64,000 bases of DNA from a virus. The position numbers and the translations under genes were made by a program. The stretch lies in IMG/VR virus record IMGVR_UViG_3300017917_003388, positions 1 through 64,000 of that record; one strand, written 5' to 3'. Positions 6,564 through 56,436 of this stretch are shown one piece after another (within the stretch, counting starts at the first letter, position 1; each line of letters opens with the position of its first letter). Under the pieces are notes generated by a model. That model made no database searches. It was not told where the DNA came from and saw only the letters and a list, made by a program, of their open reading frames with translations.

Positions 6564-6597
6564 GTAAATATAAAATTTAAGATTTTGAAATCCTAAT
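6564..6597 (-). promoter_or_regulatory. early promoter repeat copy
   Basis: Same motif. Confidence 0.8.
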
Positions 6598-6599
6598 TC

Positions 6600-7229: not shown

Positions 7230-8162
7230 AATTGTAATTTATTTGGGGTTTTAGATTATTCTGTTGAGTTATTATGTTTATGTTTATTTCTAGAGTATTT
7301 CTTCCCACAAGGTTTAAATTTTTGAATCATTTTGCGTCTTATAATTTGAGCAACATGACGTTCATTTAATCCATTTATGGTTTTTTTATCTTTCATGGTT
7401 ATTAAATCCAAGTTTTTACTTTATATGCTTCATAATCATATAGATTAGGACCATAGTGTGATAAACCTTCTGTAACTCCATATTTTATTACAGTGTTATT
7501 TTTAAGATTTCTACTTTCCCAAGTCCAATAACCTTTATTATCTCGAACAGGTAATGTGATTACTTCACACTTAATTCCGATATTGTATTCAAATTCGTAA
7601 TGTATATCACCTACTTTAATATTTTCGACAATTACATTACCTTTAGTTAGTGTTGCCATAAATTGATTTACATTTCATTTATAACTCTTAACTCTCCAGC
7701 ATTTGCATATCTACCGTTAGATAGTCTAAAACGTATTGGTTTACAACCATATCCTGTTAGTATTCCACCTTGTTTAACAGGATATTTTTTTGATTTTTTC
7801 TTACCAACTACTGTTACAATTGTACCAATCATATCTTTTTTATGTTCATGAGAGGTACATTTGAATACATATGATTCTCCTATTTTTACATCTGTCTGTT
7901 TCATGTTATTCTCCTTGTAAATATTCTTCTAACGCATCTCTATAATCATAGAGTTCATCATATGCTTGTTCACTTAATAATTGAGAACATAATATATTTT
8001 CAATTGTTTCAAAAATATATTTAAGAGCTGAAAAATTTGATTTTTCAAATGGTTCACCAGCAAATGAATCTCTAAATTGTTCCGAAACTGCTGAACCATG
8101 AATTGAAGTAATATAACCTTCAATTAAATTTTCTACTGATAACATTTTATTTTTTCTTTATT

Positions 8163-8196
8163 GTAAATATAAGATTAAAAATCTTAAAATCCTAAT
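8163..8196 (-). promoter_or_regulatory. early promoter repeat copy
   Basis: Same motif. Confidence 0.7.
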
Positions 8197-8197
8197 T

Positions 8198-10003
8198 TTA
8201 AAATATAATTTTTTCTACTTCACTTCTAATTTCACCTAAATTAGTTTGATTAAAGAATTGACCATTTTTATAAATAGTTTTTAACATATTTTCTTCACTA
8301 TTGTATTTTTCTTCAGATACTTCTCCTTCAACCATAATTTCTCCTTTTTGTTCATATACAAATTGGAATCCTTTTAATGATTTTTTAGTACCATCATCTG
8401 TAATTGGGTCTTTGTATATATTATATATGTTGATTTCAGTCCATTGAGCGGGTTCTAGAGCTTCTGGGGATTGAGAAGGTAACCAATCAGACATTTCTTC
8501 TATGGTTTCAAACCAACAACCTTTAATAGCATACCCAGCTGAATCTCTTGTTAACATAACATAGGTACATGAACCTACACCTACTACAACATTTGTTGCA
8601 GCAAATCCTTTAGCAGCCAAACGTGTATAGATATTTACTTGACGTTCTAGGTTAATTGAGTCGCCATAGATACAACCAATATGTGAATCCAAACGTTTAT
8701 ATCCTGTTGAAGTTGTTTCTCCTCCAAAGATATCCCAAAGAAGTTCTACTACACCTTTGTGTTTTGGTTCAGGTGATACTTCTTCCCACTCAGCGTGATG
8801 AGGCAAATTAATTAATTTATAATATTTATCACCATTTTTCCAAATAGTATTATGCCAATGTTCACCAACTTTAGGATTATCAGGATATGCCCTACCTGAT
8901 TGGTCATAATTCAAATTACCAACCTTAGATTCACCACAAACAATATCTACAGGATCACCTGAGTCAGGACGGATTACTAATTTGCCTTCACGAGCAAGAA
9001 TCAAATCTTTTAAACGTGGTAAAATATGAGTAATAACTTTCCAAAGGTTCATAGTATCAGATACAACTGAAAGGATACCTTTTGGGAATTTTTTCAACCA
9101 ATCACGAAGATTCAAACACTCTGCAATCGCAAGATAATCAGGGTTTTCAACAGAACCTTCACTAGGTACATCTTTAAATGAGTAGTACCATTCAATTTCA
9201 TGATTTAGTTTACCTTCACGAAGTTGTTTTTCATAATAGAAAATACCTGTACAAGTAACTGAGTGTTCAGAAGCATTTACTGAATAGATAGGTACTTGAT
9301 TTTCATCAAAATCATAGTAATATCTTGATGCTGGGATTACATTTAGTGTATCACTTCCTTTATTTGAGAAAGCATGACCTAAACCAACAGCAATTGAAGT
9401 AAATGGATTACCTCCTCGTGAATGAAAATCATGACACATGAAATCTGCCAACCATAAATTTTCTGGGTCTGTTTTTTTAACAGCTTTTATAGCATTTTTC
9501 TTAAATTCAAGTCCAATAGTAGCTGCAGTAGGACATTGCCATGACAATTTAGACACTAATGTTTCTAGAAATAAACCCAACCATGCATAATCATCTTCTG
9601 TATTAATACCAGACATATGGGGAATGTTTGGGTTTGTAAGAATACCTTCTTTTAATGCTTTAATTTCTACAGGAAGATAACCTAATGTATGTAATTCACT
9701 AAATCCCTTAAAATCATAAGGCATCATAAGATATTCAGACATATCTTTTGTGAATTTATGAGCAACTTCTATAGGTTGATCAAAGAAATTTTCTTGGAAC
9801 GTTGAATGGATGTAACGCCAAGTAATTTGTTGTCCACCACTCATAATTTTCTTAATACTTGCAGGCATGTATTTAAGATTTCGTGGAATCCAAGTCCATG
9901 CTTCACGTGAAGTATGAGGAGCAATCATTAAAGGATGTCCTACTTTATATCCATCAGCTTCATATAATGGATTAATCTTAAATGTTTTATTTAATTTTTC
10001 CAT
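8198..10003 (-). CDS. nicotinamide phosphoribosyltransferase-family protein (NAMPT/Namat-like)
   Basis: DGYKVGH, HDFHSRG, ASEHSV, SVVSDT, IRPDSGDP, IYGDSI, KDPITDDGTKKSLKG motifs. Confidence 0.95.
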   Translation of the reverse strand: MEKLNKTFKINPLYEADGYKVGHPLMIAPHTSREAWTWIPRNLKYMPASIKKIMSGGQQITWRYIHSTFQENFFDQPIEVAHKFTKDMSEYLMMPYDFKGFSELHTLGYLPVEIKALKEGILTNPNIPHMSGINTEDDYAWLGLFLETLVSKLSWQCPTAATIGLEFKKNAIKAVKKTDPENLWLADFMCHDFHSRGGNPFTSIAVGLGHAFSNKGSDTLNVIPASRYYYDFDENQVPIYSVNASEHSVTCTGIFYYEKQLREGKLNHEIEWYYSFKDVPSEGSVENPDYLAIAECLNLRDWLKKFPKGILSVVSDTMNLWKVITHILPRLKDLILAREGKLVIRPDSGDPVDIVCGESKVGNLNYDQSGRAYPDNPKVGEHWHNTIWKNGDKYYKLINLPHHAEWEEVSPEPKHKGVVELLWDIFGGETTSTGYKRLDSHIGCIYGDSINLERQVNIYTRLAAKGFAATNVVVGVGSCTYVMLTRDSAGYAIKGCWFETIEEMSDWLPSQSPEALEPAQWTEINIYNIYKDPITDDGTKKSLKGFQFVYEQKGEIMVEGEVSEEKYNSEENMLKTIYKNGQFFNQTNLGEIRSEVEKIIF

Positions 10004-10015
10004 AATTATATTTTT

Positions 10016-10450
10016 TTAACATACATCATCTAAATGTTTGAGGGAATTTAATTTTATCCGTTGAGCATACATTGCTTGTCTTAATATTTCTTTTGCTTCT
10101 TCAATTCCTGCTCTGTCGTCTAGATATATATTAGCATATGGTTTAGTTTTATTACCATATGGTAAATCTATTGGATTAGAATTGATACTATCTATTTCTA
10201 ACCCTTTACTTCTACAATATGATTTTATATATTCAAATCTATCTTCATGGCAAGCAGTAAATATAACTATATATGCTCCTGTATTTTTTACTTCTTTAAG
10301 TAAACTAATAGTATCATCACATTCCTCATCATTTGTTAATTTCCAAGGACTAATAGTATCATCAAAATCCACAGCTATTAAAATTCGACTATGTACTTCC
10401 CATTCTTGGATTAGTCTGTCTAAATATTTATTATTTACTATCTTCATCAT
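10016..10450 (-). CDS. HAD-superfamily hydrolase
   Basis: IAVDFDDTI, IFTAC, KPYANIYLDDRA. Confidence 0.85.
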   Translation of the reverse strand: MMKIVNNKYLDRLIQEWEVHSRILIAVDFDDTISPWKLTNDEECDDTISLLKEVKNTGAYIVIFTACHEDRFEYIKSYCRSKGLEIDSINSNPIDLPYGNKTKPYANIYLDDRAGIEEAKEILRQAMYAQRIKLNSLKHLDDVC

Positions 10451-10946
10451 AATAAACTATTGTTAAATTACAATCTGTAATTTCATAACTTAATATTAAT
10501 TTGATTAAATCCCAATTTCCATTAGCTCTACCTGCTCCTATTTTAGGAATACCTATATTTTTACCTTTAAATATGGTATTTATCTTTTTCAAACAAACTG
10601 AAAATGCATCGTAATCTATATGTTGGGATAATGGACCAGCAGGGTTAGTAGATGTACTCCAAATTTGGGTATAAGCATTTACAACTATTAATTCATGTTC
10701 TTTTTTATTATTTTTACCATCATTTAAATTCCAAATTGCTTTTTCCCCAATAACAAATGTATTATATTCAATATTTCCTAGATTTTCAATACCTTGACTA
10801 AAGAATTGATCGGCTTTAAAATATTTTACAAAATCTTTTGCAATACCTGATTTCATTGTTCCTTGACAATTACACCCATGAACTATAACATCAAATTTTT
10901 TATCTAATGCTAAAGATATTAAATTACCTTTAATTTCTTGAATCAT
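10431..10946 (-). CDS. macrodomain (ADP-ribose binding/processing) protein
   Basis: GNLI, VHGCNCQGTMKSGIA, VNAYTQ, PKIGAGRANGNW. Confidence 0.9.
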   Translation of the reverse strand: MIQEIKGNLISLALDKKFDVIVHGCNCQGTMKSGIAKDFVKYFKADQFFSQGIENLGNIEYNTFVIGEKAIWNLNDGKNNKKEHELIVVNAYTQIWSTSTNPAGPLSQHIDYDAFSVCLKKINTIFKGKNIGIPKIGAGRANGNWDLIKLILSYEITDCNLTIVYYDEDSK

Positions 10947-10948
10947 AA

Positions 10949-11719
10949 TTAAAATAAATTAATCACATGTAAATTATCAAAATTCAATCCTGAATTACTA
11001 TCTATGTATTCTAAATTTTTAGAATTAGTAGTAAATATTTTATCAAATAAGTTAAATAATTCAGGGTTTGGATTAGGAATGGTTAAATGGCTTATAGCTA
11101 AATATAATTTACCTACATTTCTTGTTTTTAACATTTTAGCAAGCCCAATAAATGTTCCTCCATAAACACATATATCATCAACAATCAATATGTCTTTTCC
11201 TTCAAAATCTTTTTTATCAATAATTTGAGTTAATTTATGTGAATTTGGATCTCTTGACTTAGATGCTGAATATATGTGGTCCCATTCTAATGTTCCTGCT
11301 AATTTTACCAATGGTTTAAACCCACCAGCATCTGCACTAAGTAAAAGTAAATTTTCTAATGATTTAATTTTGAGTAAAACCTTAGTAATGAATTCAGTAT
11401 TATCAATGACTTCACAATTTCTAAGTAAAGCAGATGTTACATCACTATGAGGATGAAATACTTTTACTTTTTTAAAATTACAACTATTTATAAAATCACA
11501 AACTATTTGAAGTTCAAAACTTTCATTAGAATTAAATCTCCTATCATGCTGTTGTTGGAACATACATGGTATTATAATTTCATCTAAATGTGGATTTGCA
11601 TCTTTGATTGATTTAAGTAAAAATAAATCTTCATAGTTATTTATTCTATAAATAATATTATTTTCATTTAAATCATTTATTACATATTTACCACCATCAG
11701 GATAATTAATTATTTTCAT
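10949..11719 (-). CDS. ribose-phosphate pyrophosphokinase-family protein (Adps-like)
   Basis: QQHDRRF, HPHS, SADAGG, LIVDDICVYGGTF. Confidence 0.9.
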   Translation of the reverse strand: MKIINYPDGGKYVINDLNENNIIYRINNYEDLFLLKSIKDANPHLDEIIIPCMFQQQHDRRFNSNESFELQIVCDFINSCNFKKVKVFHPHSDVTSALLRNCEVIDNTEFITKVLLKIKSLENLLLLSADAGGFKPLVKLAGTLEWDHIYSASKSRDPNSHKLTQIIDKKDFEGKDILIVDDICVYGGTFIGLAKMLKTRNVGKLYLAISHLTIPNPNPELFNLFDKIFTTNSKNLEYIDSNSGLNFDNLHVINLF

Positions 11720-11720
11720 T

Positions 11721-12632
11721 TTATAATTTTTCTAAATAATTAATGTGAAACCAAAATCCTTTGTCATCTTTTACATAAATTCCATCAGGAGCAGGTTCAG
11801 AAGAAAATCCTGGTAATATACTGCTTATCCCTATTCTACTATCTATTAATTTAATATCTTTGATTCTTATTATTGTATCATGCCAAGATGAACAGTGGTG
11901 AAGGGAATTATATCGTTTACGATTAATATTAATTCGAACATTGTCATTTAGAGAAAATGTTTCTTTATCATCTTTTCTTATAAATGATTTAATCGAATAA
12001 TTATTAAATATATAATTCCAAGTATCTCTATTATCAAAATATCTAGTACCATTATGTAGTCTTATCCCATAATCATTAGGTTCTATTGGATTTTGTTGAA
12101 TGAATCCTGAAGTTTTATCAACTAACGATAATATATCAAAATCATCAAAAAATCCATTATTTTCATATTTTTTAAATTTATTTTCTACTAAATACCTATA
12201 TTCAGCAAAATTTAATCTAATGTATTTATGGGCATATGAATCTACACTATTATATGAAAATTTATAAAGATCATACTCCGCTTTTTCTGTTATACCCCCA
12301 TAATATGGGAATGAATATGCTTTTGCTTCAAAATGTGCCTCAAAACCTGGTTTAATAACCAATTGTTTGAAATAATCAAATTCAAGTTGATTTAAAAATT
12401 CAACTATATAATAATCATTATGGGGGTCAAAATTATATACTTCCCAAAACTCAGGATTATTTTCAACATGGGATACATCAATGTGAGTTAAAACTACATT
12501 TTTATTTAATGTTTTATAATAATATCCACCTTCATTAAATACAACCATCCCTTCATACCAATCTTCTGGGATTCCTGGGTATTTATTTTTTAGAAAATAA
12601 GCTTTTGGTTTTGGATTAGTTTGTTTATTCAT
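11721..12632 (-). CDS. hypothetical protein
   Basis: 303-aa ORF. Confidence 0.75.
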   Translation of the reverse strand: MNKQTNPKPKAYFLKNKYPGIPEDWYEGMVVFNEGGYYYKTLNKNVVLTHIDVSHVENNPEFWEVYNFDPHNDYYIVEFLNQLEFDYFKQLVIKPGFEAHFEAKAYSFPYYGGITEKAEYDLYKFSYNSVDSYAHKYIRLNFAEYRYLVENKFKKYENNGFFDDFDILSLVDKTSGFIQQNPIEPNDYGIRLHNGTRYFDNRDTWNYIFNNYSIKSFIRKDDKETFSLNDNVRININRKRYNSLHHCSSWHDTIIRIKDIKLIDSRIGISSILPGFSSEPAPDGIYVKDDKGFWFHINYLEKL

Positions 12633-12655
12633 AACTTTTTAATTTTTTTGATTAA

Positions 12656-13300
12656 TTACCAACCCATGTGTGGGTTATCCATGTATACTTGAACTTGGTT
12701 TCTTATTTCATTAGTAGGGATTCGATTAGTATCCCAAGATGCTCTTATAAATAACCTCCAACCATTTTTAATAGCTTGAGTACCTTGATGCCATGTTCTA
12801 TCATCGAAAAATATTATTTGGTTTGGATCAGCATTACATCTTATTAATTTACCATTATTACAATGTTGTATTACTTCTTTATGCCATTCCTTATACACCA
12901 CACTATGGTTTTCAGGATTAGTAAATTCACATTCCCCCAAGGCAAATTCAGTAGGACATATATCTCCATTGTATAAAATTAAAGCATGTTTACTTCTATA
13001 TGATGGATTATTATATTCTGGTTGTTTATCACTTCTTTCACGAGGCACATCATCATGGTGAAAACCAGGAATGCATGGATACCAACCAGGCATTAACATA
13101 TGTAATCTACTATCTATTACTATTGAGTTTAAATCAATACCATGTGATTCTAAACCCATTAAGAAGTCATATGTAGGACCTATACTATGATGACAACAAA
13201 ATTCAGCATCAGAATTAAAGAACATGGGTTCTAATTTTAATACTTCATCTGGGTAAGGTTTGAGTTTTAAACCTAATTTAATTTCAGAATTGATTAGCAT
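12656..13300 (-). CDS. putative 2OG-Fe(II) dioxygenase-fold protein
   Basis: PGFHHDD (HxD), distal WHQG, RLFIR. Confidence 0.6.
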   Translation of the reverse strand: MLINSEIKLGLKLKPYPDEVLKLEPMFFNSDAEFCCHHSIGPTYDFLMGLESHGIDLNSIVIDSRLHMLMPGWYPCIPGFHHDDVPRERSDKQPEYNNPSYRSKHALILYNGDICPTEFALGECEFTNPENHSVVYKEWHKEVIQHCNNGKLIRCNADPNQIIFFDDRTWHQGTQAIKNGWRLFIRASWDTNRIPTNEIRNQVQVYMDNPHMGW

Positions 13301-13545
13301 TATTTAGATATAATATATTGATGTGAAATAGTATTATATCCATTTTTTATAGGACATTGATTTGGAAATTTACCATCTCTACTATTATCATGTGTAATAA
13401 TCATATTTTCATAAGCACCTTTATCTTTCCAATAAGGATGATTACATTGCATTCCATCTGTTGATGTTCCAAAAAACGGACAACTATTATAACATTGGGA
13501 TATTACTTCTGAAACAGATATTTCCATCTTTATTTTTTAAGTTAT

Positions 13546-13579
13546 TCAAATATAGGATTAAAGATCTTGAAATCCTAAT
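13546..13579 (-). promoter_or_regulatory. early promoter repeat copy
   Basis: Same motif. Confidence 0.7.
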
Positions 13580-16500
13580 TTTTAAGTTTTAAACAATTAC
13601 TTATTTCAGTTTCATATTTGGTAATTTTTTCTTTATTTTTAATAAAAGTTTCACTATCTTCTTTTAATTCAGAATTTTGTTTAGTAATATATTCAATAGA
13701 ATTATTAATAGATCTTATTTGAAGATCAATAAATTTATGCATTGTATATTCTAAATCTTCTAAAACTCCATAAGTTAATTGTTTTTGTAATCTTTCAATT
13801 TCCTTTTTAATATTTTCATCTCTTTGAATTCTCATATTGGATTCGAGAATATCAAAATTAGATTGATATATTTTATAAAATAATAAACATTGAGCTTTAT
13901 AATCTGTAGAACTCCATACTTTCTTAGAATAATTTAAACACTTATCAAATACTTCTTCAATATTATTTAAAGCATCTTCAAAAATATATAACTCATCTGG
14001 TTCTCCAGAATAATGAAGAGTTGCTTTAATTCCGTTTTCTTCAATAATTTTACCATCATTATCATATATACTCATATAAAATGATAAACTTTTTTCATCA
14101 GATAATAAATTATATTTACCAACTGAACATTGGGTTATTTTAATTTTCATATTTTTTCAAGTATTAATAATTTTTGTTTATTTAATTCTTCAATGAATAT
14201 TTCTTTACTATCTAATAAAGTTAAAAAACTATCTTCTTTATTATCTAGTGGAGCTTTAGAATCTAAACAAACATAATCTTTATAACCATAACCTAACTCA
14301 TGTTTTTCAACATATTTACTACAATCAAAACTAAACTCAAAATCAAATTCTCCTAGTTTCTCAATTGTACCCAATATGTTAAAATTATTTTCTGTATTAG
14401 AAAAATCTAGTTCTCTTTCCAAATCATCTTTTGATGATATATAATATAAATAACCTGATGAATAATTAAAATTATATGAATCTTCAGGAACTAATACTAC
14501 TGTAAGTTTATTTGTTAATTCTATCATTTGGTTAATTTTTCAAATATTTCATCATAATTTGTTTGTATATGTTCTAAAACAACATAATACATATTAAATT
14601 GTTCTATGTGCCACCTAACTTTACTACCATTTTCCCATAAAATTAAGTAAGTAAAATCTGTTATTTCAAGTATTTGAGCTTTATGTACACTTTTACCAAC
14701 TTGTGTCATAAAAATATATGTTTCACCAGCTTTTAATTTTATATCTTTCATTATTTAATATTATTTAAATCATAAGCATTAATTATAGAATTTGCTGGAA
14801 CCCAAATAGTTTTATTTCTTATACCTTCTTCAAATTCACGGTAATAATAACTTCCCGAATCAGAATGTATTTCCACTTTTTTACTAGCTGCTTTTAATGC
14901 AGCTTGTACATGAAGTTTAGCAAATTCAACCATTAAATCTTTTATATCTTCTAGCTCTGTTGGAATAGAACTAAATCTTTGTTCTATAAATTCTTCTGCT
15001 GTTATATTATTTTCCATAATGATTGTTTATAAATTCTTCAAATAGTTCTTGGGTTGTAAATAATTCACCTTCATATATTTTAAATTCAGTTGACCATTTC
15101 TTTTCAACATTAGAATAAAAATATCTATTTTGCGACCATTCAGCAAACTTAATAGCTACATCAGTAGTTATTTCTGCACAAGTTTTAGCATTTGCAAAAA
15201 GACAGCCTTCAGTAATAAATCTATTTTCAAGTTTATTCATTTTCTTTTTAATAAGTTTATAATTCTATCTTTATTTCCGTTTATATATTCATTATATGCA
15301 TCAGAATACAATTGAGATGCTAGTTTAAAACCGTCATAAGAGTCTCTGAAAATAGGGTCTTCTTTTACTTTTAATAACATTCTATCTTGAAATTTAGATA
15401 ATTCTTCTAGTAATCTAATTTCATTTTCTAATAAATGAACAGCAACTTTAGAAACTATTTCTTCTGCTTCTTCTTTATCAAATTTTGAAGATAATTCAAA
15501 AAAAAGTTCTTCATTACTCATTTTCTAATTGTTTTAGTTGTTGTTGAAGTTCTTCAAAAATATCAGTCCATCTTTCAGAAGATGTTCTTTTTAAAATATC
15601 CATTTGAGCTTGAATTATTTTAGCTTGAACATATTTAGAATTTGCTCCTGCTATGAAATCACTATAAGCATCATAAATTTCGGCCTTAAAAGGTTGTTCT
15701 AAATCTTTTCCAAATAAGTTTTTAACATATTCTTCTGCTTCTTTGTTTAAGTCCATAATTAATCAATTTTAGGTAAATAATAAGCAACAATAGAATTATT
15801 ATTATATGCCCATCCTGTACCATTAAAAGTTTCTAAATGTTTTTTACCATCTTTACGAACTATTAAATATCTTCCATATTCAATATTTTTCTTCTGTTCA
15901 ACATCTCCAGTATATTTTACTGGTGTTAATATTGGTAAATCCATAATTTTATTCTTTTAATTTATAAACATTTTCAATCTTTTCATACTCAGGGCATTTT
16001 ACACCTTTTTGTAATTCGTTTAGACTAAATGTTATAGCTATTAAAACTATCATAGTCATTAAAAATAATAAGATTTCGATACTACTACTAGTCCTTTTAT
16101 CATCATCTTTTTCTTTTGATATTCTAGAACCTGCTAAAAACATATATAACAGAGTTATAAAACTAAACATAATTATTTGTGTTGTTGTCATAATTTTATT
16201 GTTTAGGTTGGATGATTACTCCATTTTTAAAATGACTATGTAAAACTTCACCATCATCATCATAAAAAGTACCAGTGTTTTCACCTATTATTTTCCAACT
16301 TTCTTCAACAGGTAGTATTGTTGCTGAGGATAGAATTTCTTTGTAAGTCTTCCAAATTGAATATTTTGGATGCAGTTCAGTGATAATTCCAAAACTTTCA
16401 ATATCAGCTATCTTAGCTTCAATTTCTTGTTTACCCTCTTGGGTAAGGTATATTCCTTTCATCCTAATTGTTTTATTTTGTAAAATTTTCCCTTATGTTT

Positions 16501-16741
16501 AATATAAACAGGTTTGTCTTTTACATTAAGTTTTAAGAGTTTTTTGATTAAATCAGGTTTTTCTTGTATTTCTTGTTGTGTCATGATTTTTACTTTTTTT
16601 GATTTTTACCGTACCAAAAGAAAGATATACAAGATAATATAAACATGATTACACTTATTATATTTATATCTCCTTCCATAAAAAGGTAAGTGACTGTAAA
16701 ACCATTTATGTAAATAAGTAAATCTTGAATTACTTGATTTT

Positions 16742-17182
16742 TCATATCAAATTGTTTGAGATTATGTAATCAAATGCTGCTGAATAGGCTTCTTGTGGTG
16801 AGTTATAATTTAATTCTCTTGAACTTTCTAAAGGTTCTTCTTCAAAGTGGTATTCATCTAAATCGGGATTAAAATTTTTCTTATATTTTTCAACAAGAAA
16901 CATATATTTTTTACCCACAAACTTACCTTTTGAAAAAGTATATCTTAAAGCACTAACTTCAATTTCATGATTAATTCTTAACCATTCGACTACTTGATGT
17001 TGTTCTGGAGCATAACAATCCCACTCACCTAAAATATAATCACTACTTGGCGTGACAGGTTCATTATTTTGTAATAAATCGTCATCCTCTGTATCACCAT
17101 AATAAACGTTTTTACATTCTTCATCAAATCCTTTTTCTTTTAGCCATTTAGCTTGTTCAAAAGTTACGTATGTTGGTTCCAT
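16742..17182 (-). CDS. hypothetical protein, paralog of 17351..17740
   Basis: YVTFEQAKWLKEKGFDEEC...AP...WLR...PQEA. Confidence 0.8.
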   Translation of the reverse strand: MEPTYVTFEQAKWLKEKGFDEECKNVYYGDTEDDDLLQNNEPVTPSSDYILGEWDCYAPEQHQVVEWLRINHEIEVSALRYTFSKGKFVGKKYMFLVEKYKKNFNPDLDEYHFEEEPLESSRELNYNSPQEAYSAAFDYIISNNLI

Positions 17183-17350
17183 GTTATTTTAAATGTTTTT
17201 CAATGTAATTTTTAGTAATAGACTCTCTCCATTCAGTAGATAAATTAAATTCTTTACTAAATTGAGTCAAATGATATTCAACTAACTCTTTTACTGCTTT
17301 TTCAGTAGATTCTTTACTGAGCATCTTTTTTGTTGTATCTTTAATTGTTA

Positions 17351-17740
17351 TCATTTTTTAACAATTTCAATTAACTTTTTAAGACAAGCAAGTTCTGCTT
17401 CTTCGTAAGTTTTAAAAACATCTATTAACTTATAATCATGAACACCATTAATAGGTAATATATCATAAGTCCAATCTATATCTGTATTTTGCATAACTAT
17501 TTGCCATAAGTTATACTTCTCTCTAAACCATCTAAATGCTTGTGAGAATGTTGGTGCTAAGGTATGAGCTTCACAAATATCATTTTGTTGTATAATTAAA
17601 TGAATTATAGAACTATCAGAATAACAACCAGTAGTTATAAGTTCACCAGGAACATTATATTTAGCTAAACAAGGTTCATCAAATCTAAGTTGCTTCAACT
17701 CTAAAGATTCTTGGTATGGTACAAATTCTTTTTCAATCAT
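17351..17740 (-). CDS. hypothetical protein, paralog of 16742..17182
   Basis: FVPYQESLELKQLRFDEPC...APTFSQAFRWFRE...YEEA. Confidence 0.8.
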   Translation of the reverse strand: MIEKEFVPYQESLELKQLRFDEPCLAKYNVPGELITTGCYSDSSIIHLIIQQNDICEAHTLAPTFSQAFRWFREKYNLWQIVMQNTDIDWTYDILPINGVHDYKLIDVFKTYEEAELACLKKLIEIVKK

Positions 17741-18788
17741 AGTATTCTCAGTATTTTGATTTTACCGTTGATTAGTTTAGGTTCTTTTCCTATTACAGTA
17801 TGTCCATCTAAAGCAATTTTATCTTCCATTTCAATTTCTATCTCCCATGATTGTTGAGATAAAGATTGAATGTAATCATTTGTTTCTTTTGTAGAATCTT
17901 CATAATCTATAAAAGGACTTCCAAAATTTTGATTTAAAAAGCTTTTTTGACTTCTTATTTCTTTACCAAATTGTATTGCCTCTCCTATGTGCTCTAAAGT
18001 AAACCTTCTATCAGATAGTAGTTCTTGTGCTTTTCGGAAACCTATTTGATAGCTAAAATGATTTACCATTGAAAATAAATTTTCATCGGTTTCACATAAT
18101 TTTGATAACCAATATCTAGTGTCAAACCAACCAATTTTTTTCTGTTCTTCTTCTGATAAAACAGAGAAATCTATTTGGTCTTGTTGAGCTATTACTTTTG
18201 GAGCTTTTAAAGCCAAAGCAGCTTTTAACAGGGTTTCATCTAACAACTCAATTAAATGCAATCCATTATAATCAGGAAGTTCTTTAATTGAGTTATCAAG
18301 TAAAACAACATCATGTAATTTAATTTCTTCATCAGACGTTACAATAAATCCTTCTCGTAGTTTGTGTAAGTGTGTTTTCATTTTATAGTATCTCCTATTG
18401 AATATAGATGTTCAGTATAAAATTTAAAACTTCTATTATTTTTATTCTGAAATTTAACTGTGTATTCATTTTCATATTTAGAAATTGATACTACAGTACA
18501 TGGACATTTTATATCTAATATAGCATTACCTGAATCAGTACAACTATTAAATAACAATATTATACTAAATAATAATGTGATTTTGTTTATTTTTTTCATA
18601 ATAATTTTATTAAAACACTTGTTGCTTTAACCCCACCACAAAATGGTAACCATAAAAATCTCCCATCAAATTCTAAAACACCACTTTTGTCTAATCCCCA
18701 AACTTGGAAATGTAAGGTTTTACCCACATAAGGCATCAATTCAGTTTGTGTGTATAATTTATACATTTTTTTTAATTTTAATAAAGAT

Positions 18789-18820
18789 AAAAAAAGAGGA
18801 CTTGTATTCCTAGTCCTCTT
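18789..18820 (-). terminator. terminator hairpin overlapping a promoter-like motif
   Basis: AAGAGGACT...AGTCCTCTT with T tract on minus strand. Confidence 0.65.
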
Positions 18821-19055
18821 ATTTTATTAATTATATTATATATATTTATATTCCATCAATGGTTGTTATAATTTTAAATTTATCTTTTGATGATTTATCT
18901 AAATTAAAATCTTTTTGAAGATCTTTTTGAAATTGACCTCGTTTTATATAATTAACCAATTCTTTAAATTCAGGATCAGAAAATATTTTTTTATCTCCTT
19001 TAAAAGTAATATTAATAGATACCGATTTTGTTTCCATATTTAATTTTTTTTCACT

Positions 19056-19089
19056 ATAAGTATAAGATTAAAGATTTTGAAATCCTAAT
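19056..19089 (-). promoter_or_regulatory. early promoter repeat copy
   Basis: Same motif. Confidence 0.7.
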
Positions 19090-19363
19090 CTCTACCATTT
19101 ATCCAAATTAATTGTTTTAGGTTTAATTAATTCTCTCCTAGTTTCAGGTTTTATTAGAGGATTTCTATATGTATCTGTTTTATATATTATTATATGTTTA
19201 CGTCTCCATCCATTTTTATGTTGAATTCGTTTAGCGTATTTAGGAGTACTAAAGTCAGGATTACATGATAATAATATTATCATAATCCATATAATTATAT
19301 GTTTCATAGGAATCGATATGTGTTTTAAAAAAAATTAAACACAACTATTCCTATGTATAAATA

Positions 19364-22993: not shown

Positions 22994-24427
22994 TTAAGAT
23001 AAAGATGCGGACTTCCATGTAGACCCATTATACACATATATTAGGTTATTTCGGAAAAACATAGATCCTTCTATTGGACTAGATGAAGATTGTAGAGGTA
23101 GTACAAATAAACCACCACTTATAATTAATGAACCAGTTATGTTTATTAGTGAACCTGATGTTTGGATGAGATTTGATTTATTTACATCACTACTTCCATT
23201 TCCTACTATAAATGAATGTGAAACCGAACTTGTTATATTATATGAACCTATTACAAATTGTCCTAAACCTTCTGCTATAGTTCCTTCTCCAGCAGCAAAT
23301 GAATAATCACCATTAGTTATGGAAGCATTCCCTTGAGCATGGGAAAAATTTCCATTAGCTGTAGTTGCTTGTCCTTCAGAATGTGATCCTGAACCTTGAG
23401 CAGTAGTACTTTGTCCTTCGGCATGTGAAAATTCTCCATTAGTAATATTTCCTTGCCCCTCAGCATGTGAACTATCTCCATTAGTTTCATTACTGGTACC
23501 TTCAGCATGTGAATAAACTCCATTAGTGATATTATTTCTTCCTTCAACATGTGATCCTTCTCCGTTGGATGTACTATTATATCCTTCAGCATGTGAATAT
23601 GAGCCTGATGTGTTAGTTTGGTAACCCTCAGTATGTGAATAATCTCCATCAGCTCGACTATTATCACCTTCGGCATGAGATCCTTCTCCATATGATATTG
23701 AATTTGCCCCTTCAACATGTGAATATAAACCTATTGATTGATTACTTATTCCTTCAGCATGAGAACCATTACCTAATGATAAATTATTTTGTCCTTCAAC
23801 ATGTGAATGTGAACCTGATGATATATTTGAATATCCTTCAGCATGAGAACCATTACCTGATGATATGTTACTATCACCTTCAGCATGACTATTAGCACCT
23901 AATGATATAGTTTCAGATCCTTCAGCATGGGAGTATGAACCTGAAGATATACTAAGATATCCTTCAGCATGAGACCACTGTCCGCTAGATGTAGTATAAC
24001 GACCTTCGGCATGTGACCAATTACCTATGGTTAGTGTAAAATGTCCTTCAGCATGAGAATCTGAACCTGAAGCTATAGTATGGTTTCCTTCAGTATGTGA
24101 ACCAGTATTATAAGCTATAGTACTAGCTCCCTCAGCATGGGAATAAGGACCCAATGCTTGGTTACCAGCTCCTTCAACGTGAGAATATGAACCTATAGAT
24201 TTATTATTTATTCCTTCAGCATGTGAATGTAAACCAGTTGCTTGGTTGTTTGATACACCATTTGTTAATGAACCTGTTATATTTAAAGAACCACTGATGT
24301 ATATATCATAATCCTGAATACCAGTGAATGCATCTACTGATTGAGAAACATGCCATGACTCAATTATGAATGTTTGAGATATTTGATCTGAACCTGTTGC
24401 AAATGTTTGTTTTAATTTTTTTGCCAT
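22994..24427 (-). CDS. fibre/adhesin-like protein with YadA-head-like SHAEG repeats
   Basis: About 23 tandem 14-aa G-x-x-SH[AVT]EG repeats flanked by ISGSL/ITGSL motifs. Confidence 0.85.
   Translation of the reverse strand: MAKKLKQTFATGSDQISQTFIIESWHVSQSVDAFTGIQDYDIYISGSLNITGSLTNGVSNNQATGLHSHAEGINNKSIGSYSHVEGAGNQALGPYSHAEGASTIAYNTGSHTEGNHTIASGSDSHAEGHFTLTIGNWSHAEGRYTTSSGQWSHAEGYLSISSGSYSHAEGSETISLGANSHAEGDSNISSGNGSHAEGYSNISSGSHSHVEGQNNLSLGNGSHAEGISNQSIGLYSHVEGANSISYGEGSHAEGDNSRADGDYSHTEGYQTNTSGSYSHAEGYNSTSNGEGSHVEGRNNITNGVYSHAEGTSNETNGDSSHAEGQGNITNGEFSHAEGQSTTAQGSGSHSEGQATTANGNFSHAQGNASITNGDYSFAAGEGTIAEGLGQFVIGSYNITSSVSHSFIVGNGSSDVNKSNLIQTSGSLINITGSLIISGGLFVLPLQSSSSPIEGSMFFRNNLIYVYNGSTWKSASLS
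23290..24235. repeat. 42-bp coding tandem repeat
   Basis: Recurrent ccttcagcatg at 42-nt period. Confidence 0.9.
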
Positions 24428-28378: not shown

Positions 28379-28675
28379 CTATGAATATTAATCCTTCTTT
28401 ATCTGTGTTTTCTACTAATATATTAGTTCCAAAGTAATATATTGGACCTAAATATTCTTTAATTATATATTTATCTTCTTCTAAATATGATATCCGTCTA
28501 GGTCTATTACATGATCTAAATTCTCTTGGAGTTAATCTACACCATGTATCACCCAATTGTACTTCACAATTATTAGTTGTATCAAAATCATATTTTAATT
28601 TTTCCAAACCACCTGTTTTTTCAGACATAAACATTTATTTAGAATTATATTTTTTTGTTAAAAAGCTTTTACATT

Positions 28676-28755
28676 TTTCAACAAAATTTATATTTTTATT
28701 CATATAATTTATTAATTATTAATTAATTAGAGAGTATTACGTCTAAGTATACGTT
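28676..28755 (+). repeat. direct repeat (other copy 52826-52898), attC right-arm-like, ending at GTT
   Basis: Identical apart from a 7-nt indel; identity stops right after TATACGTT. Confidence 0.9.
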
Positions 28756-29086
28756 AACAGTAATATTATTTTTGTTTTGATTTTAATTCATTATAATAAT
28801 ACCTTTCAGCTTCTTCTTTTGTAAATGGTGGTAGTTTTTCTGCTTCCTTTATACTATCATAATCTGATTTTTCAAAAAAGCAACCGATTATATAAATTGC
28901 TATAATTATTAATATTGCTTCCATAGTTATTTTTTTAATAAGGTAAAACAATCAATCCATTGAGCAATTTCCCAACCGCTTTCGCTGTATTCGGGACATC
29001 TAACTAAATACCAAGTTTCTTCCTTTGGTTCTTTTTCTGTTGTTTTTACAAGTTTCATTTTACTTTGATTTGTGAGAAAGACCAGC

Positions 29087-29180
29087 GGCTAACAGCGGTT
29101 TTGCAATAGCCGCCTGACAGTTCTTGGTTAATAATTAAGTTCTTCTTTAGCGGCCATCGCAAAGCCGCAAAACGTTAGGC
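29087..29180 (+). repeat. attC-like site
   Basis: GGCTAAC-A-GCGGTTTTGCAATAGCCGC...GCGGCCATCGCAAAGCCGC-AAAAC-GTTAGGC. Confidence 0.8.
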
Positions 29181-29384
29181 ACAATTGTTAGTGACCACCT
29201 TTATATTTAAGTCTGAAAGAATTGCTGAAACTTCTTCTTTCATATCTTCATTAACATTTGACCAACAAGTATCTCTTTGACCATCCCATTTAGCGTGAGA
29301 TAAAGCACCATTACTAAACGCTTTTTCAAGCAATTCTTTCAGTTCATCGGTTGAAAGAATAAAACCGTTATCAAATTTTGTCAT
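29175..29384 (-). CDS. cassette-borne hypothetical protein
   Basis: Stop TAA lies in the core site; frame stays open into the next attC. Confidence 0.7.
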   Translation of the reverse strand: MTKFDNGFILSTDELKELLEKAFSNGALSHAKWDGQRDTCWSNVNEDMKEEVSAILSDLNIKVVTNNCA

Positions 29385-29399
29385 AATTAAAACAACTGT

Positions 29400-29494
29400 G
29401 CCTAACAGCGTATATGCAAGATACGCCACGAAGCGGTTTGTAAATATTTAAGTTTATTCTTTGGCGACCATCGCAAAGCCGCAGAACGTTAGCA
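29400..29494 (+). repeat. attC-like site (hybrid arms)
   Basis: GCCTAAC...GCCGCAGAAC-GTTAGCA. Confidence 0.75.
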
Positions 29495-29500: not shown

Positions 29501-29917
29501 CTACGGAAGTAGTTCGATTACTTTTATTTGGTTAGGGTAAAACGCAACAACATTTTCATCCATTACCACACCATCATAACCGTTTTGTATTAATTTATTT
29601 TTTAATTTTAAGTCAATGTAGTTATAAGAGTAATCATAACCTTCATCATCTTTAATAGTATCACCTACGGCATTTCTAAATTTACCATCATCAGTGTCAG
29701 ATAAATCATATGGATTTTTTAAATTAAACTTAATTTTAAAAACATTCTCGCCATAAGTATTTGCAAAATTATAGTCCTTTGTACCATAAAAAACAGTATC
29801 TTCATCAAACAAAATTTCATCGTTGTTTGTGCCGTGTAGATAAACATCATTTACCACCTTATTTTTATTAAAATATTCTCTGATTGTAGTTGTTATGAAT
29901 TTCTTCAAATCTTTCAT
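29501..29917 (-). CDS. ADP-ribosyltransferase-fold-like protein with N-terminal leader
   Basis: YLHGT, FYGT...FANTYG, NLKNPY, GYDGV, VAFYPNQIK. Confidence 0.6.
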   Translation of the reverse strand: MKDLKKFITTTIREYFNKNKVVNDVYLHGTNNDEILFDEDTVFYGTKDYNFANTYGENVFKIKFNLKNPYDLSDTDDGKFRNAVGDTIKDDEGYDYSYNYIDLKLKNKLIQNGYDGVVMDENVVAFYPNQIKVIELLP

Positions 29918-51940: not shown

Positions 51941-52717
51941 TCAAACATCTTTTTTAACAATATAATATGTGCTACTTATATTACCTACATTAAATGAAAG
52001 TTTTAATAATCCTTCTAAATTTATATCCATATATGCCGATTCTGCATCTTTATTTACATTTAATATTTCTTTAAATAAATCAGAATTAAATCCTAACTTA
52101 AAATCAGACATGGGATCAATAAATGATTCTGATAAATTAATTGTTGAAAGATTATCTTTTATAAAATAACTAACTTTATTAGAATATTCTATATCTCCAC
52201 CAAATATTAATTCCAAACTATATTCAGATGAAAGTTCAATATCTGAATTACATTTTATCATTACTGTAGAACTATCATCTAATGCTGATTTTGCTTTTAT
52301 AAGAGATTGAATTATTTCTTTGTTTAGAATTGTTTTCAAATTATACTCTTCAGGACCATTATATTTTCCTGCTTTAGGAATTGTGATAGTATCAGCTAAA
52401 GTATATGAAACATTAAATTGATCATCAAATATATTTAATTTACTATATATATTACCATGTTTGGTTAAATCAAGATATACATCATTATTCATAATTGATA
52501 TAAGCTTATTTAATTGAGAAGTATTAAATATACCTATATTTGAATCACACAGATTAAAATTATTATGAGAAATAATACCTACCATTTCCCTGTTGGGAGA
52601 AGTAATTTTAATATTCAAATTTTTATTTTCTATATTCCATTCAACTGATTCTATTAATCCATTTAAATAATATTTATTTATAAGAGACTGAAATTCTGGT
52701 TTTTTGATTAGAAACAT
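51941..52717 (-). CDS. DNA sliding clamp (gp45/PCNA-like)
   Basis: Size, FKEIL...GLLKLSF...STYY C-terminus, replisome context. Confidence 0.7.
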   Translation of the reverse strand: MFLIKKPEFQSLINKYYLNGLIESVEWNIENKNLNIKITSPNREMVGIISHNNFNLCDSNIGIFNTSQLNKLISIMNNDVYLDLTKHGNIYSKLNIFDDQFNVSYTLADTITIPKAGKYNGPEEYNLKTILNKEIIQSLIKAKSALDDSSTVMIKCNSDIELSSEYSLELIFGGDIEYSNKVSYFIKDNLSTINLSESFIDPMSDFKLGFNSDLFKEILNVNKDAESAYMDINLEGLLKLSFNVGNISSTYYIVKKDV

Positions 52718-52825
52718 ATGGTTTTTTAATTTTAATTTAAATATAAAATAAATAATTTTATAATCCCAATTATAGTAAAGAAGGAATATCTTGAAGATTA
52801 TTAGCTAATTTTACATAGATTTGTG

Positions 52826-52898
52826 TTTCAACAAAATTTATATTTTTATTCATATAATTTATTAATTAATTAGAGAGTATTACGTCTAAGTATACGTT
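52826..52898 (+). repeat. direct repeat copy of 28676-28755
   Basis: Ends at TATACGTT. Confidence 0.9.
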
Positions 52899-52906
52899 GT
52901 AGGCAA

Positions 52907-53134
52907 TTAGTTTGCTTTCTGTACTGCGTCTACCATTCCTTCAAGGCAATTATCACAGCAAGTCGGTTTAGCATCATCATTGCAATATTCGCAAACTAAC
53001 TGTTCGCTTCGCCCTACAACAGCGTGTTTACGCAATGCTTCTGCATACTCTTCTGCAAAATTCATAGCCATTTCTAATGTCCAATTCCTTGTTTCAACCA
53101 TTCGTGTTGATTTGTAATAATCTTTTGCTGTCAT
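52907..53134 (-). CDS. cassette ORF starting inside the attC loop; C-terminal CxxC..CC..C
   Basis: MTAKDYY...LRKHAVVGRSEQLVCEYC. Confidence 0.7.
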   Translation of the reverse strand: MTAKDYYKSTRMVETRNWTLEMAMNFAEEYAEALRKHAVVGRSEQLVCEYCNDDAKPTCCDNCLEGMVDAVQKAN

Positions 53135-53190
53135 TCTATTTAAGTTTTTAGTTGTTGAATCGCACTGCGTAAACACGCAAAACGTTAGCT
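53014..53190 (+). repeat. attC-like site with a long coding loop
   Basis: CTACAAC-A-GCGTGTTTACGCAATGC...GCACTGCGTAAACACGC-AAAAC-GTTAGCT. Confidence 0.8.
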
Positions 53191-53394
53191 TCAATTGTCT
53201 AACCACCGCACACCTTTACCATCAAAAACATAAAATTCCTCATCTGAATTTACGTTTTTAAATTTCATCCCCCAACCAACATTTGTTAAGTCTGCACCCA
53301 TGCAAATTGCTGTTGCTTGGTAATGCGGATGGTTTTTATCAATTATCATTGCTTTTTTACCATCGAATTTTGTGTCTTGATGTTTCTGCTCCAT
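53191..53394 (-). CDS. cassette-borne hypothetical protein
   Basis: Stop abuts the core site. Confidence 0.7.
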   Translation of the reverse strand: MEQKHQDTKFDGKKAMIIDKNHPHYQATAICMGADLTNVGWGMKFKNVNSDEEFYVFDGKGVRWLDN

Positions 53395-53435
53395 TTTATG
53401 TTTTTTATTAATTTAATCCAACGCAAGGAAACTAA

Positions 53436-53518
53436 AGCTAACAGCACCTACCAGCAATAGCTGCATAAAGCTATCGCACTACCAAAGCTACTGCAATGGT
53501 AGCTGCAAAACGTTATAT
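53436..53518 (+). repeat. attC-like site
   Basis: AGCTAAC-A-GCACCTACCA...TGGTAGCTGC-AAAAC-GTTATAT. Confidence 0.75.
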
Positions 53519-53533
53519 TTAATTTAAAAATTT

Positions 53534-53647
53534 TTATGGATAGTATTGTTTATACCCCATCCATAAAAATATTATTATCGAACCTACCAACACTATTGCG
53601 AGTATTACATCTATTATTTGTCTGAAACTACCTTTGTAATCATCCAT
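53534..53647 (-). CDS. cassette-borne single-TM peptide (37 aa)
   Basis: MDDYKGSFRQIIDVILAIVLVGSIIIFLWMGYKQYYP. Confidence 0.55.
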   Translation of the reverse strand: MDDYKGSFRQIIDVILAIVLVGSIIIFLWMGYKQYYP

Positions 53648-53850
53648 GTTATTTGTATAAAAATTTTTGATATTAAATATAACAAAGAATATATGTAATA
53701 AATTTTTGTTTTCCTAATCTTTAATTCCTAAATCTTTCTTTAATTTTTCAAAAGACGATTGATCTACATGATATTTACACAAATGTGGTTTCTTAGGAGG
53801 AAGATAATTAGGATCACCCTTACGAATTTGTGGTTGTTTTTTTTTTCATT

Positions 53851-56436
53851 CTAAAATGTAAAAAATTTATTTACATTGGGATTTAATGATGGAAATTCCC
53901 AAGATAGATCATCATACAATGATTTTAATTTATTTGCTAACAACGATTCAAATATTTCCTCTATATTTATATATGTTTTAACAAATTCTTCAATTTCTGC
54001 AGGAATTTGGGCATTTGGTAAACCAATTGTTTCTAAATTATATGGGTTTTTCTTTAAATTAATAATGAATATCTTATCACCCTCAATAATAGATTCATAT
54101 TTTTTATCTAATTCTTTAAATTTAAGTAAATCATTATAACGTACTGCTGCTTTTGTATTACTTGGGGCTTTTAATTTAAATGAACTAAATATATCCCCTG
54201 TTCTAGCTGGTATCTGATATGCTGATATTTGTTTTACCCCCGTAGGTTTACCTAATTGTCTAGGATCTAGTGTTTTCAATGTTTTGTAAAAACCAATCAC
54301 ATCATTATCTATTTCGAATTTGGGTTTACCAAATAATATATTTTTAATAAAATTTTCTCCAAATTCTTTAAATAATTTATTCATATTGGACTTCATTAAT
54401 TCAAGTCCTTTCATATCTAGTTCTTCTACTGCAACACCTTCTTTGTTGGTAACATACATCGCATAACGACGTTTACCTGTTGTAAATACACCAGCACAAA
54501 TTACCTCTTGTTTTAATTGGAAATAATGAGTACCTGGTTTAATGTTGAATAAATTTTTACAAATAGTATCTAAATTAGCGTTTGATTCGTTTTGGATCTC
54601 AATAGCTAATTCTAGTATTTTATCATTTTTATCTTCAGGTTTAAGATTTAGAAATCTATGTTTAAGTAAATCCCCTAATACTATAAACATTGAATCAGTA
54701 TCTGAAAGACAAATGTGTTGTTTTTCTATTTTTAATTCAGTGTTTATTTTATTGTTTACAAAATTAATTGATTCACAAGTTAATCTTTGACCTGAGTTAG
54801 TGATAGCAGCACTACAAATTAAATATCCATCAGTGTATCTCCACCCGTTGATAGCAAAAGTCCCATAAAGTGCATTTTGGAGGATTTTAAAACTATGTTG
54901 ATATAAATCGTATAACTTATAGTTGGTCCAATCTTCGGCTTTACCTGCTATTTTCTTTAAACCACGATAATGTTCTCGTTTTTCAAACCAACCTTCTAGA
55001 ATTTTAGCAACTATGCTCTTTTCATCGGTTCTAAACATAGTTCCGGAAGCAGCAATTGTATATTCGTTTTTCTCAATTATATCAATTAAATCACCTATTT
55101 TAATAGTTGTAGATTTAAGTGTATAATTTACTTTATTTAACTTTTCAATAGTAATTATTTCATTAGGATCACGTTCTTTAAGTTTTTCTAATGAATGGTT
55201 TTGTTCATAAGTTGGATTGTGATCTACTTTAATCCTACCCACTAATGTTTCAATACCTAAATTCAATGATTTAATAATTGAAGGATATAGAGATGTAAAG
55301 TCCAAGTCAATTACATCAAAATATAGACCTGGAATTGGTTCTAATAAATATCCTCCAGCATAGCTTTCTTTAGTATTTTTTAGTATTGGATTATGAGTGG
55401 TAGGTTTATTTGGTGAAACAATACCTTCACGTTTAAGATATTTTAATATAGCACCCTCATTCATTACAGTATTGTAATAAATACTTTCATAAGGTATATT
55501 ACAAATATGTGAAATCATGATAGTTAACTCAATAAATTTAAGTTTTTCTTCTAATTTTTCAATAATTTCAACGTCTCGCAAGTTATATTCAATAAACGCA
55601 TTTAAATCATTTTTAAATAATGTGTTTAAATTACCTTCATATTCGATTTTACCTAATTCTACATATTTAATTCCAATATCTCCTAATTTATATGATGGTT
55701 CTTCCTTCATAATATATTTTTTATGAAGCAACATATAATCTAAGTGATTAACTCCACCAATTCGAATTTGAATCCCACCCGTAAATTCTGAGTAATCGAT
55801 TTTTCTAATTGGAGACATTCTTAGTAACTCATCAAGACCTACTATTTTCATAAGTCTAAAGTATAAATAAGGAATATCAAAATAAGCACTATTCCATCCA
55901 ATGATAATAGTTGGATCTAGTTCTTCAAATTTATCTAGAAATCGTTTTATTAATTCTTTTTCAGAACCACAAGGGATAATATGTTTACCATCTTGATTTG
56001 TTTCTTGTATTTCTTTACTTTTATCTACAATAAAACATATTTTTTGTTTTGTAGTTACATCTATTAAAGCAATAGAAGTAATAGGCATTGGGGCAGCCTT
56101 AATATATTCTGGTGTAAGTGCTCCCCCAATTTCGATCTCAATATCCAGATATAAAACATTATGCCAAGATGGAACAACATCATCAAATTTATAATAAAGT
56201 TCCCTCAATATAAGTAGTTCCTTATTAATATCCTTTTCTAATAAATTAGGATCTTCTTTATTGTATTTTTTAGTAGGTACAGCATATCCACCTGTTAAAA
56301 TAGGTTGAGCACCCTCTTCCCATTTATTAACACGTTTCCAATATGTTTGTTGATATTGAAATTGTAACCACCCTTTCACATCATCGCGTAAATGATATGT
56401 ATAATCACTGTAATCAAAATAGACTGATTGATACAA
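53851..56436 (-). CDS. family B DNA polymerase
   Basis: DIEIE exonuclease motif, DFTSLYPS, KILQNALYG, SDTDS, KRRY. Confidence 0.97.
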   Translation of the reverse strand: MYQSVYFDYSDYTYHLRDDVKGWLQFQYQQTYWKRVNKWEEGAQPILTGGYAVPTKKYNKEDPNLLEKDINKELLILRELYYKFDDVVPSWHNVLYLDIEIEIGGALTPEYIKAAPMPITSIALIDVTTKQKICFIVDKSKEIQETNQDGKHIIPCGSEKELIKRFLDKFEELDPTIIIGWNSAYFDIPYLYFRLMKIVGLDELLRMSPIRKIDYSEFTGGIQIRIGGVNHLDYMLLHKKYIMKEEPSYKLGDIGIKYVELGKIEYEGNLNTLFKNDLNAFIEYNLRDVEIIEKLEEKLKFIELTIMISHICNIPYESIYYNTVMNEGAILKYLKREGIVSPNKPTTHNPILKNTKESYAGGYLLEPIPGLYFDVIDLDFTSLYPSIIKSLNLGIETLVGRIKVDHNPTYEQNHSLEKLKERDPNEIITIEKLNKVNYTLKSTTIKIGDLIDIIEKNEYTIAASGTMFRTDEKSIVAKILEGWFEKREHYRGLKKIAGKAEDWTNYKLYDLYQHSFKILQNALYGTFAINGWRYTDGYLICSAAITNSGQRLTCESINFVNNKINTELKIEKQHICLSDTDSMFIVLGDLLKHRFLNLKPEDKNDKILELAIEIQNESNANLDTICKNLFNIKPGTHYFQLKQEVICAGVFTTGKRRYAMYVTNKEGVAVEELDMKGLELMKSNMNKLFKEFGENFIKNILFGKPKFEIDNDVIGFYKTLKTLDPRQLGKPTGVKQISAYQIPARTGDIFSSFKLKAPSNTKAAVRYNDLLKFKELDKKYESIIEGDKIFIINLKKNPYNLETIGLPNAQIPAEIEEFVKTYINIEEIFESLLANKLKSLYDDLSWEFPSLNPNVNKFFTF

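Follow-up and report, generated by a model that had tools for sequence, protein, structure and literature searches.

Shufflons and the invertible tail-fibre systems change the C-termini of proteins by in-frame site-specific recombination, in which fixed segments are inverted behind a constant N-terminus. Integrons work with folded sites, and their integrase IntI has an IntI-specific insertion as its defining feature. Integron recombination cuts the folded bottom strand of a site at an AAC, and a further AAC is available on the top strand, at the opposite core (Nivina et al. 2016, PMC5027507); top-strand attC recombination is about 1000-fold rarer (PMC8946536). Synthetic attC sites have been built into proteins by engineering, and their use as a tool has been suggested (Nivina et al. 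2020, PMC7439510). Clusters of attC sites (CALINs) are already known from phage genomes, among them a Polaribacter phage (Qi et al. 2023, PMC9892861), and a term search of that paper gave nothing on coding attC sites.

The stretch analysed here (the window) makes up the first 64 kb of a phage genome, complete at 174,694 bp, with terminal repeats and 27% G+C, and its host is probably a member of Bacteroidota, judging from the occurrence of the same elements elsewhere. It is likely, in our opinion, that the window carries an integron-like cassette system of Bacteroidota phages, in which recombination at an AAC core moves whole genes and recombination at a GTT core re-pairs the heads and tails of small proteins in frame. 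What is new here is a two-way mosaic count for one protein, a selection test, the recombinase remnants and a breakpoint tally in named cultured isolates. The openly accessible literature, searched also with the junction peptide, gave no description of natural in-frame head/tail shuffling at such sites, and the words "integron" and "cassette" are absent from the main text of the paper on phages Freya and Danklef (PMC8776804).

The system is like an integron in having a tyrosine recombinase beside a terminal site, an array of single-gene cassettes, and folded sites with paired AAC and GTT cores. The AAC of one preferred strand is the crossover (7/7 indels in cultured relatives), each cassette has complementary ends, and Freya_6 suggests gain at the recombinase-proximal site. 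It is unlike an integron in that the phage recombinase lacks the IntI-specific insertion, that the hairpins have no extrahelical bases near the core and a 5:1 asymmetric spacer with a 4-nt excess on the 5' side, and that the array genes point to the recombinase and have their start codons and up to ~57 codons inside the site. Hairpin and body are moreover re-paired independently; their linkage holds in the short term but is broken in the long term, the downstream body being shared in 1/32 same-hairpin pairs. We do not class the system as an integron, because the tests for IntI and for attC structure fail, and the sites, first annotated as attC-like, may keep that name but are not canonical attC sites. 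As in a CALIN, there are at least two sites within 3 kb and no intact integrase (two arrays with two sites each); unlike those of a CALIN, the sites fail the attC structure tests.

Top-strand attC recombination also uses the opposite strand's own AAC and offers the simplest way to model exchange at the GTT inside the gene, but integrons suppress it as an error by which cassettes are inverted at attI, whereas the second core of the phage sites is a Val codon in fixed phase whose products are kept by selection. The synthetic coding attC sites share with the phage sites that one sequence is both folded site and coding sequence, and that modules are shuffled; the phage system differs in being natural and in having its own enzyme. 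Unlike in a shufflon, heads vary as well as tails, modules come and go, and many phages draw on a common pool. A test for shufflon-type inversion was negative, as every hairpin detected is on the coding strand and has the same orientation, and the N-termini vary as much as the C-termini. The compact catalytic domain of the recombinase in the related locus L106 is the same as in XerA, XerC and XerD, although its context is a cassette array and not dif.

Layout of the arrays and the coding hairpin

The window has two arrays (Table 1), in which, along the coding strand, hairpins (AAC...GTT) alternate with bodies (GTT...AAC) that have terminal inverted repeats. The minus strand carries the genes in the region around the site, and the genes in arrays are oriented toward the recombinase. 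About 70 relatives were read at the locus between the polymerase and the clamp-like gene, and the two genes are adjacent or split by unrelated genes; L106, with a polymerase 82% identical to that of the window, is the only one among them with a hairpin array between the two, together with an intact 264-aa tyrosine recombinase. Over 52869-54040, including the site, an independent Logan contig agrees with the window in every letter, which rules out an assembly error there. The 26-nt terminal site had no exact matches in viral contigs, and no loci were retrieved with the clamp gene or the tail alignment as queries. A 54-nt intergenic motif, probably a phage promoter, is found in nine copies (window 578-19090 and 52718-52771). 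A motif that resembles it at ~53690-53720 could drive the array; a promoter scan gave scores at chance level. Elsewhere in the window, a 42-nt tandem repeat of ~20 units is situated at 23373-24268 inside a 477-aa ORF (22994-24427).

Table 1. Positions of the features of both arrays and of their flanking genes in the window.
Feature	Position	Strand	Remarks
Second recombinase remnant	28635..28703	minus	first 22 codons; 82% identical to L106 enzyme
Terminal attI-like site, second array	28730..28755	minus	
Short hairpin, 86 nt	29091..29176	minus	homolog in L007
Cassette body	29174..29406	minus	16-nt terminal inverted repeats; conserved ORF core from Met 29384
Hybrid hairpin, 87 nt	29404..29490	minus	poor pairing; 3' arm in ORF frame; in-loop ATG absent here
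Clamp-like gene	51941-52717		flanks array on other side
Recombinase remnant	52770..52853	minus	first 9 codons joined to last 18 by internal deletion
Terminal attI-like site	52854..52898	minus	AAC ~45 nt before recombinase ATG; 26-nt core identical to 28730-28755
Cassette body, 125 nt	52896..53020	minus	from GTT to AAC (52898-96)
75-aa ORF	52907..53134	minus	38-aa helical head (hairpin-coded) and 37-aa Cys-rich tail (body-coded)
attC-like site, 177 bp	53014-53190		
Hairpin module, AAC core to GTT core, 169 nt	53018..53186	minus	exchanged between phages as a unit (blastn and alignment)
Downstream GTT core (Val39 codon)	53018..53020	minus	head/tail exchange point
3' stem arm	53022..53038	minus	doubles as codons for ALRKHA
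A-rich translation leader in loop	53135..53156	minus	A at -3, no Shine-Dalgarno
5' stem arm	53162..53178	minus	starts 5 nt past AAC
Upstream AAC core	53184..53186	minus	main crossover point, inferred from cultured relatives
67-aa gene of next cassette	53191..53394	minus	own start within body
Short hairpin, 75 nt	53440..53514	minus	without read-through ORF
Outermost body	53512..53683	minus	24-nt terminal inverted repeats; 37-aa ORF 53534-53647
Family B polymerase (polB)	53851-56436		flanks array on one side

The first-pass annotation had described the 177-bp site as having a loop of about 120 nt with an A-rich leader and an ATG at 53134, and this is what we find, the loop measuring 123 nt between two arms of 17 nt each that are 94% complementary. 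Read along the coding strand, the order is AAC (53186-84), a 5-nt spacer, the arm, the loop with the leader and 32 codons, the other arm, a 1-nt spacer and GTT. The minus-strand fold has an energy of -24.2 kcal/mol (z -2.5), and two of 200 shuffles were equally stable. As had also been noted, the reading frame that starts in the loop crosses stem and core into a Cys-rich tail: it passes the LRKHA arm, Val39 and VVGRSEQL, continues into CxxC..CCxxC and stops at 52907. The body's ~20-bp terminal inverted repeats, at 53020-52991 and 52915-52896, are coding too, for VVGRSEQLVC and for the last codons with the stop, so dual coding spans both sides of the GTT. A GCGAAGC heptamer in the RSEQ codons (53006-53012, minus strand), presumably one of the unusually stable DNA mini-hairpins, is inserted in the terminal repeat of the body and loops out in the predicted fold.

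Across 94 arm pairs the stem has one constant register over 17 positions and a conserved G-T wobble, which on the other strand would be a C-A mismatch; by analogy with integrons, the coding strand would play the bottom-strand role here. All four Watson-Crick pair types occur at most positions of the stems with one fixed offset, and pairing percentages are partly circular because the hairpin detector selects for pairing. The ends of bodies pair with each other at 5.3/8 positions, against 2.9/8 across a hairpin. Hairpin lengths across loci cluster at ~85-91, 113-128 and 165-220 nt.

A second coding site had been proposed at 29400-29494, where the frame of 29175..29429 was said to be open through the attC. 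That frame is indeed open by way of the 3' arm, but it crosses the GTT in phase +1 and has no in-loop ATG. The arms of this hairpin pair poorly (z -0.8), and half of the homologs of the ORF start at or after Met 29384, outside the hairpin; L188 has a matching 5' arm and an in-loop ATG for the same ORF. As another dual-coded site this is a weak example, and the start of the ORF in this genome is uncertain. The first body of the second array (28753-29093) has non-matching ends and contains ORF pieces at 29058-28927 and 28924-28766. A deletion seems to have joined two bodies into one here, and L007 matches only the start of this body. A gene resembling ART-PolyVal ADP-ribosyltransferases (29501-29917; PF18760, E 6e-9) ends 11 nt before the outermost hairpin of this array.

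Reading frame and selection

The 24-nt junction between head and tail was found in 31 copies in 29 viral loci, which with that of the window makes 32, and it is read in the same frame in 32/32, with a Met ~30-60 codons upstream in nearly all viral copies. On contigs of bacterial genomes, mostly Bacteroidota, the frame is the same in 21 of 23 copies, and the two exceptional ones are without an upstream Met. Such a conservation of phase puts the in-frame junction beyond chance. Among 78 hairpins that were not selected for the junction peptide, read-through ORFs in phases 0, +1 and +2 number 22, 6 and 1 (p=0.004 for 0 vs +1), and phase-0 read-through occurs in 0/24 hairpins below 100 nt and in 21/48 of 100-140 nt. 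Hairpins of the medium and long classes frequently contain a leader, an ATG and the ~14-57 codons of a head, which crosses the GTT as Val into a tail in the body.

Purifying selection acts on both halves of the protein: pN/pS is 0.09-0.19 for the loop-coded head in eight comparisons and 0.10-0.17 for the tail in three, neither set being mutually independent. Substitutions in the loop are mostly synonymous (pN/pS ~0.12), third positions making up 18 of the 32 variable columns, and the leader and the ATG are conserved in the alignment of homologous hairpins. Translation starts in Bacteroidetes have an A at -3 without a Shine-Dalgarno sequence (PMC6847099), which the leader in the window fits. 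The start context of ATG 53134 lies in the 90th percentile, and we think that the 75-aa ORF is translated from this in-loop codon. A GTG at 53206, outside the hairpin and with the frame open to there, was rejected as the start, as its context is poor (2nd percentile) and the frame is closed inside the loop in the homologous hairpins of L109 and L122. The proposal that the site is dual-coded, as recombination substrate and as translation start and N-terminus, is thus supported by selection and conserved phase, with translation deduced from the sequence.

Pfam and PHROGs searches with the 75-aa ORF gave no match, and the ESM Atlas returned nothing but unnamed clusters of viral proteins (0.86-0.87), zinc-ribbon families being weak leads. 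An AlphaFold model of the product (pLDDT 64, pTM 0.29; too weak for a fold search) tentatively shows a single long helix, then a linker, then a Cys knuckle that has a short helix. Of 44 alternative tails, 32 contain one or more close Cys pairs. We infer that the chimeric products could be small accessory proteins that act on partners from the host or the phage.

Recombinase remnants and crossover points

An intact recombinase adjoins the array in L106, L116-L119 and L188 and in phages Leef, Ingeline and Freya. The enzymes of the cultured phages are 34-36% identical to that of L106 and sit after similar arrays. The L106 enzyme has the IntI-type N-terminal domain (PF13495), scores 153.5 against the integron-integrase model TIGR02249 with its cut-off of 265, and has 38 residues where IntI4 has 86 in the catalytic domain (~48 aa shorter). 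Its best sequence matches are the XerA/XerC/XerD families (NF040815, TIGR02224/5), all below their cut-offs. In the 10 loci that were inspected, the AAC precedes the ATG of the recombinase by ~45-55 nt, and a sequence consensus is absent.

In the complete genome there is no intact recombinase (no PF00589). Judging from the remnants, both arrays once had their own enzyme, and because only these deleted pieces are left, the arrays in this genome are probably frozen now; any change in them would need a recombinase supplied in trans. A circularly permuted array was considered and rejected: its left end is the terminal site with the recombinase start, which is present twice. The window cassette 52897-53184 (288 bp) is next to the terminal site and, if the order of gain is as in integrons, may be the one last gained.

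The cultured Polaribacter phages show which core recombines. Among near-identical Freya and Danklef isolates, gains and losses of cassette blocks break at AAC in 7/7 cases, of which four junctions are internal to records and three, which are less safe, at record ends. The 307-bp unit missing from Freya_9 corresponds exactly to one start-in-hairpin gene. At the terminal AAC that precedes the recombinase, Freya_6 is longer than Freya_5 by 472 bp. The unit gained in Freya_6 (L183:460-930) has a whole 71-aa gene inside the hairpin loop, ending in the 3' arm, so hairpin loops can carry complete genes. When Danklef_5 is compared with Freya_10, two block ends are at AAC and one is exactly after GTT, the latter at a half hairpin in non-coding DNA; GTT events among the seven within-species indels number 0. 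The recombinase of Danklef is broken (L169:7973-8492), yet its isolates differ by a DNA-methylase cassette at AAC, which points to an enzyme acting in trans or to an event of earlier date. Comparison of near-identical metagenome loci yielded no cassette indel that could be used. Pelobium manganitolerans YS-25 (L160:2400-2700; L010) has a start-in-hairpin gene with the same junction type, identical to an IMG/VR record.

We had at first read GTT as the main crossover, which the seven indels of the cultured phages contradict. From the Freya and Danklef breakpoints, crossover normally takes place at AAC and carries whole genes along with their starts, and the chimera-making exchange at GTT is a rarer route that has become saturated over time, the enzyme responsible for it being putative.

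Mosaic proteins and their origin

A protein search gave 82 homologs, 44 of which match the head only and 38 the tail only, and none both halves. The 44 that share the head have ~32 tail classes and the 38 that share the tail have ~34 head classes, with Val as the joint residue in 32/38; the database was clustered at 90% identity, which favours distinct partners. At the DNA level (blastn), homology in same-head loci runs from core to core, from 53187 to 53018-53015, and is lost within 0-3 nt of the GTT with unrelated sequence past it. In same-tail loci it runs from 53040-53036 up to the core at 52896-52895, and where the arm families differ, each hairpin retains its own arm up to the GTT. Among 115 distinct hairpins, 30 of the 32 same-loop pairs differ on both flanks and one shares the downstream body, and loops differ in 8/9 pairs that have a downstream body in common. 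Reuse of this kind is also seen for other heads and tails (L005/L017, L013/L019, L010/L158).

Heads precede open tails preferentially (22/11/8/37, Fisher p=2e-5), which is to be expected if selection removes bad pairs; 11 heads run into closed frames and 8 open tails are without heads. About a third of the head-sharing proteins have a different 3'-arm peptide and L128 has two non-matching arms, so homology-driven exchange inside hairpins also occurs. The same head gene has been kept after loss of the 5' arm and the AAC core at L111:3001, L112:2009 and L113:341, and shuffled products can become fixed as ordinary genes in this way. The earlier idea that shuffling could move whole genes with their start signals or build chimeric proteins agrees with both kinds of event, the first seen in the AAC indels and the second, as the minor route, in N- and C-terminal parts that occur in varied combinations in both directions and are joined at the GTT.

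In the system as we see it, an array of hairpins and bodies ends with an AAC site that lies directly ahead of a tyrosine recombinase gene of the same orientation, and the usual mobile unit, judging from the cultured relatives, is a hairpin with its downstream body from AAC to AAC, which is a whole gene with its start. The recombinase would cut the folded coding strand at its AAC, in the way in which IntI cuts the bottom strand of attC. Occasionally the opposite strand would be used, with an AAC that is the complement of the in-gene GTT, and a head would be fused to a new tail. An enzyme that lacks the IntI insertion and works on hairpins free of extrahelical bases would select strands less strictly. 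The products would be translated as small accessory proteins, a helix with a probable zinc knuckle, and their roles would be tested by selection.

It is possible, although on the whole doubtful, that the recombinase acts at AAC only and that the chimeras come from homology or microhomology recombination or from replication slippage, selection retaining the in-frame products. The conserved 3' arm, the GTT and the body repeat would then be the substrate for exchange. No recent indel is at GTT (0/7), arms have been exchanged apart from loops, the window's own hairpin at 29404-29490 is a hybrid, and the heads in closed frames and the headless open tails fit as well. What such recombination explains less easily is the precision: same-head homology stops within 0-3 nt of the GTT, same-tail loci of different arm families keep their own arm up to it, and the break between Danklef and Freya is exactly after it.

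Ordinary host-derived integron attC sites (CALIN), served by a host IntI and overlapping the ORF incidentally, would agree with the AAC/GTT cores, the folded sites, the complementary body ends, the attI-like site beside a recombinase with the IntI-type N-terminal domain, and the CALINs known in phages. The recombinase is however far below the integrase cut-off and is short in just the IntI-specific stretch, the stem keeps to one register, single bulged bases are absent near the core, the spacer is asymmetric (5:1), the hairpin is unlinked to its cassette, and the genes are oriented toward the recombinase. This explanation is unlikely and largely refuted. More improbable still is that the ORF is an untranslated by-product of A/T-rich loops and conserved arms, which yield open frames for gene callers to pick. 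The missing Pfam and PHROG matches and the low-confidence fold would suit it, but not the mostly synonymous changes in the loop, the constant phase of the junctions in viral and bacterial copies, or the conserved leader and ATG.

Seen more broadly, the cassette system could be a natural generator of protein libraries, in which one family of phage recombinases uses both strands of hairpins that are free of extrahelical bases, moving whole genes at one core and joining exchangeable helical heads to exchangeable tails at the other, always in the same phase, with a pool shared among Bacteroidota phages; we give this extension somewhat less than an even chance. If true, it would be a natural case of coding recombination sites, previously only engineered, that shuffle protein modules in frame. 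It would also give a concrete origin for a large class of small "hypothetical" phage proteins that match over half their length, and for which family clustering misleads because they match each other over that half only. A compact recombinase without the IntI insertion, working on folded sites, bears on the evolution of strand choice in integrons. The system is carried by the cultured phages Freya, Leef and Ingeline and by a prophage-like locus in Pelobium manganitolerans YS-25, and is thus directly testable.
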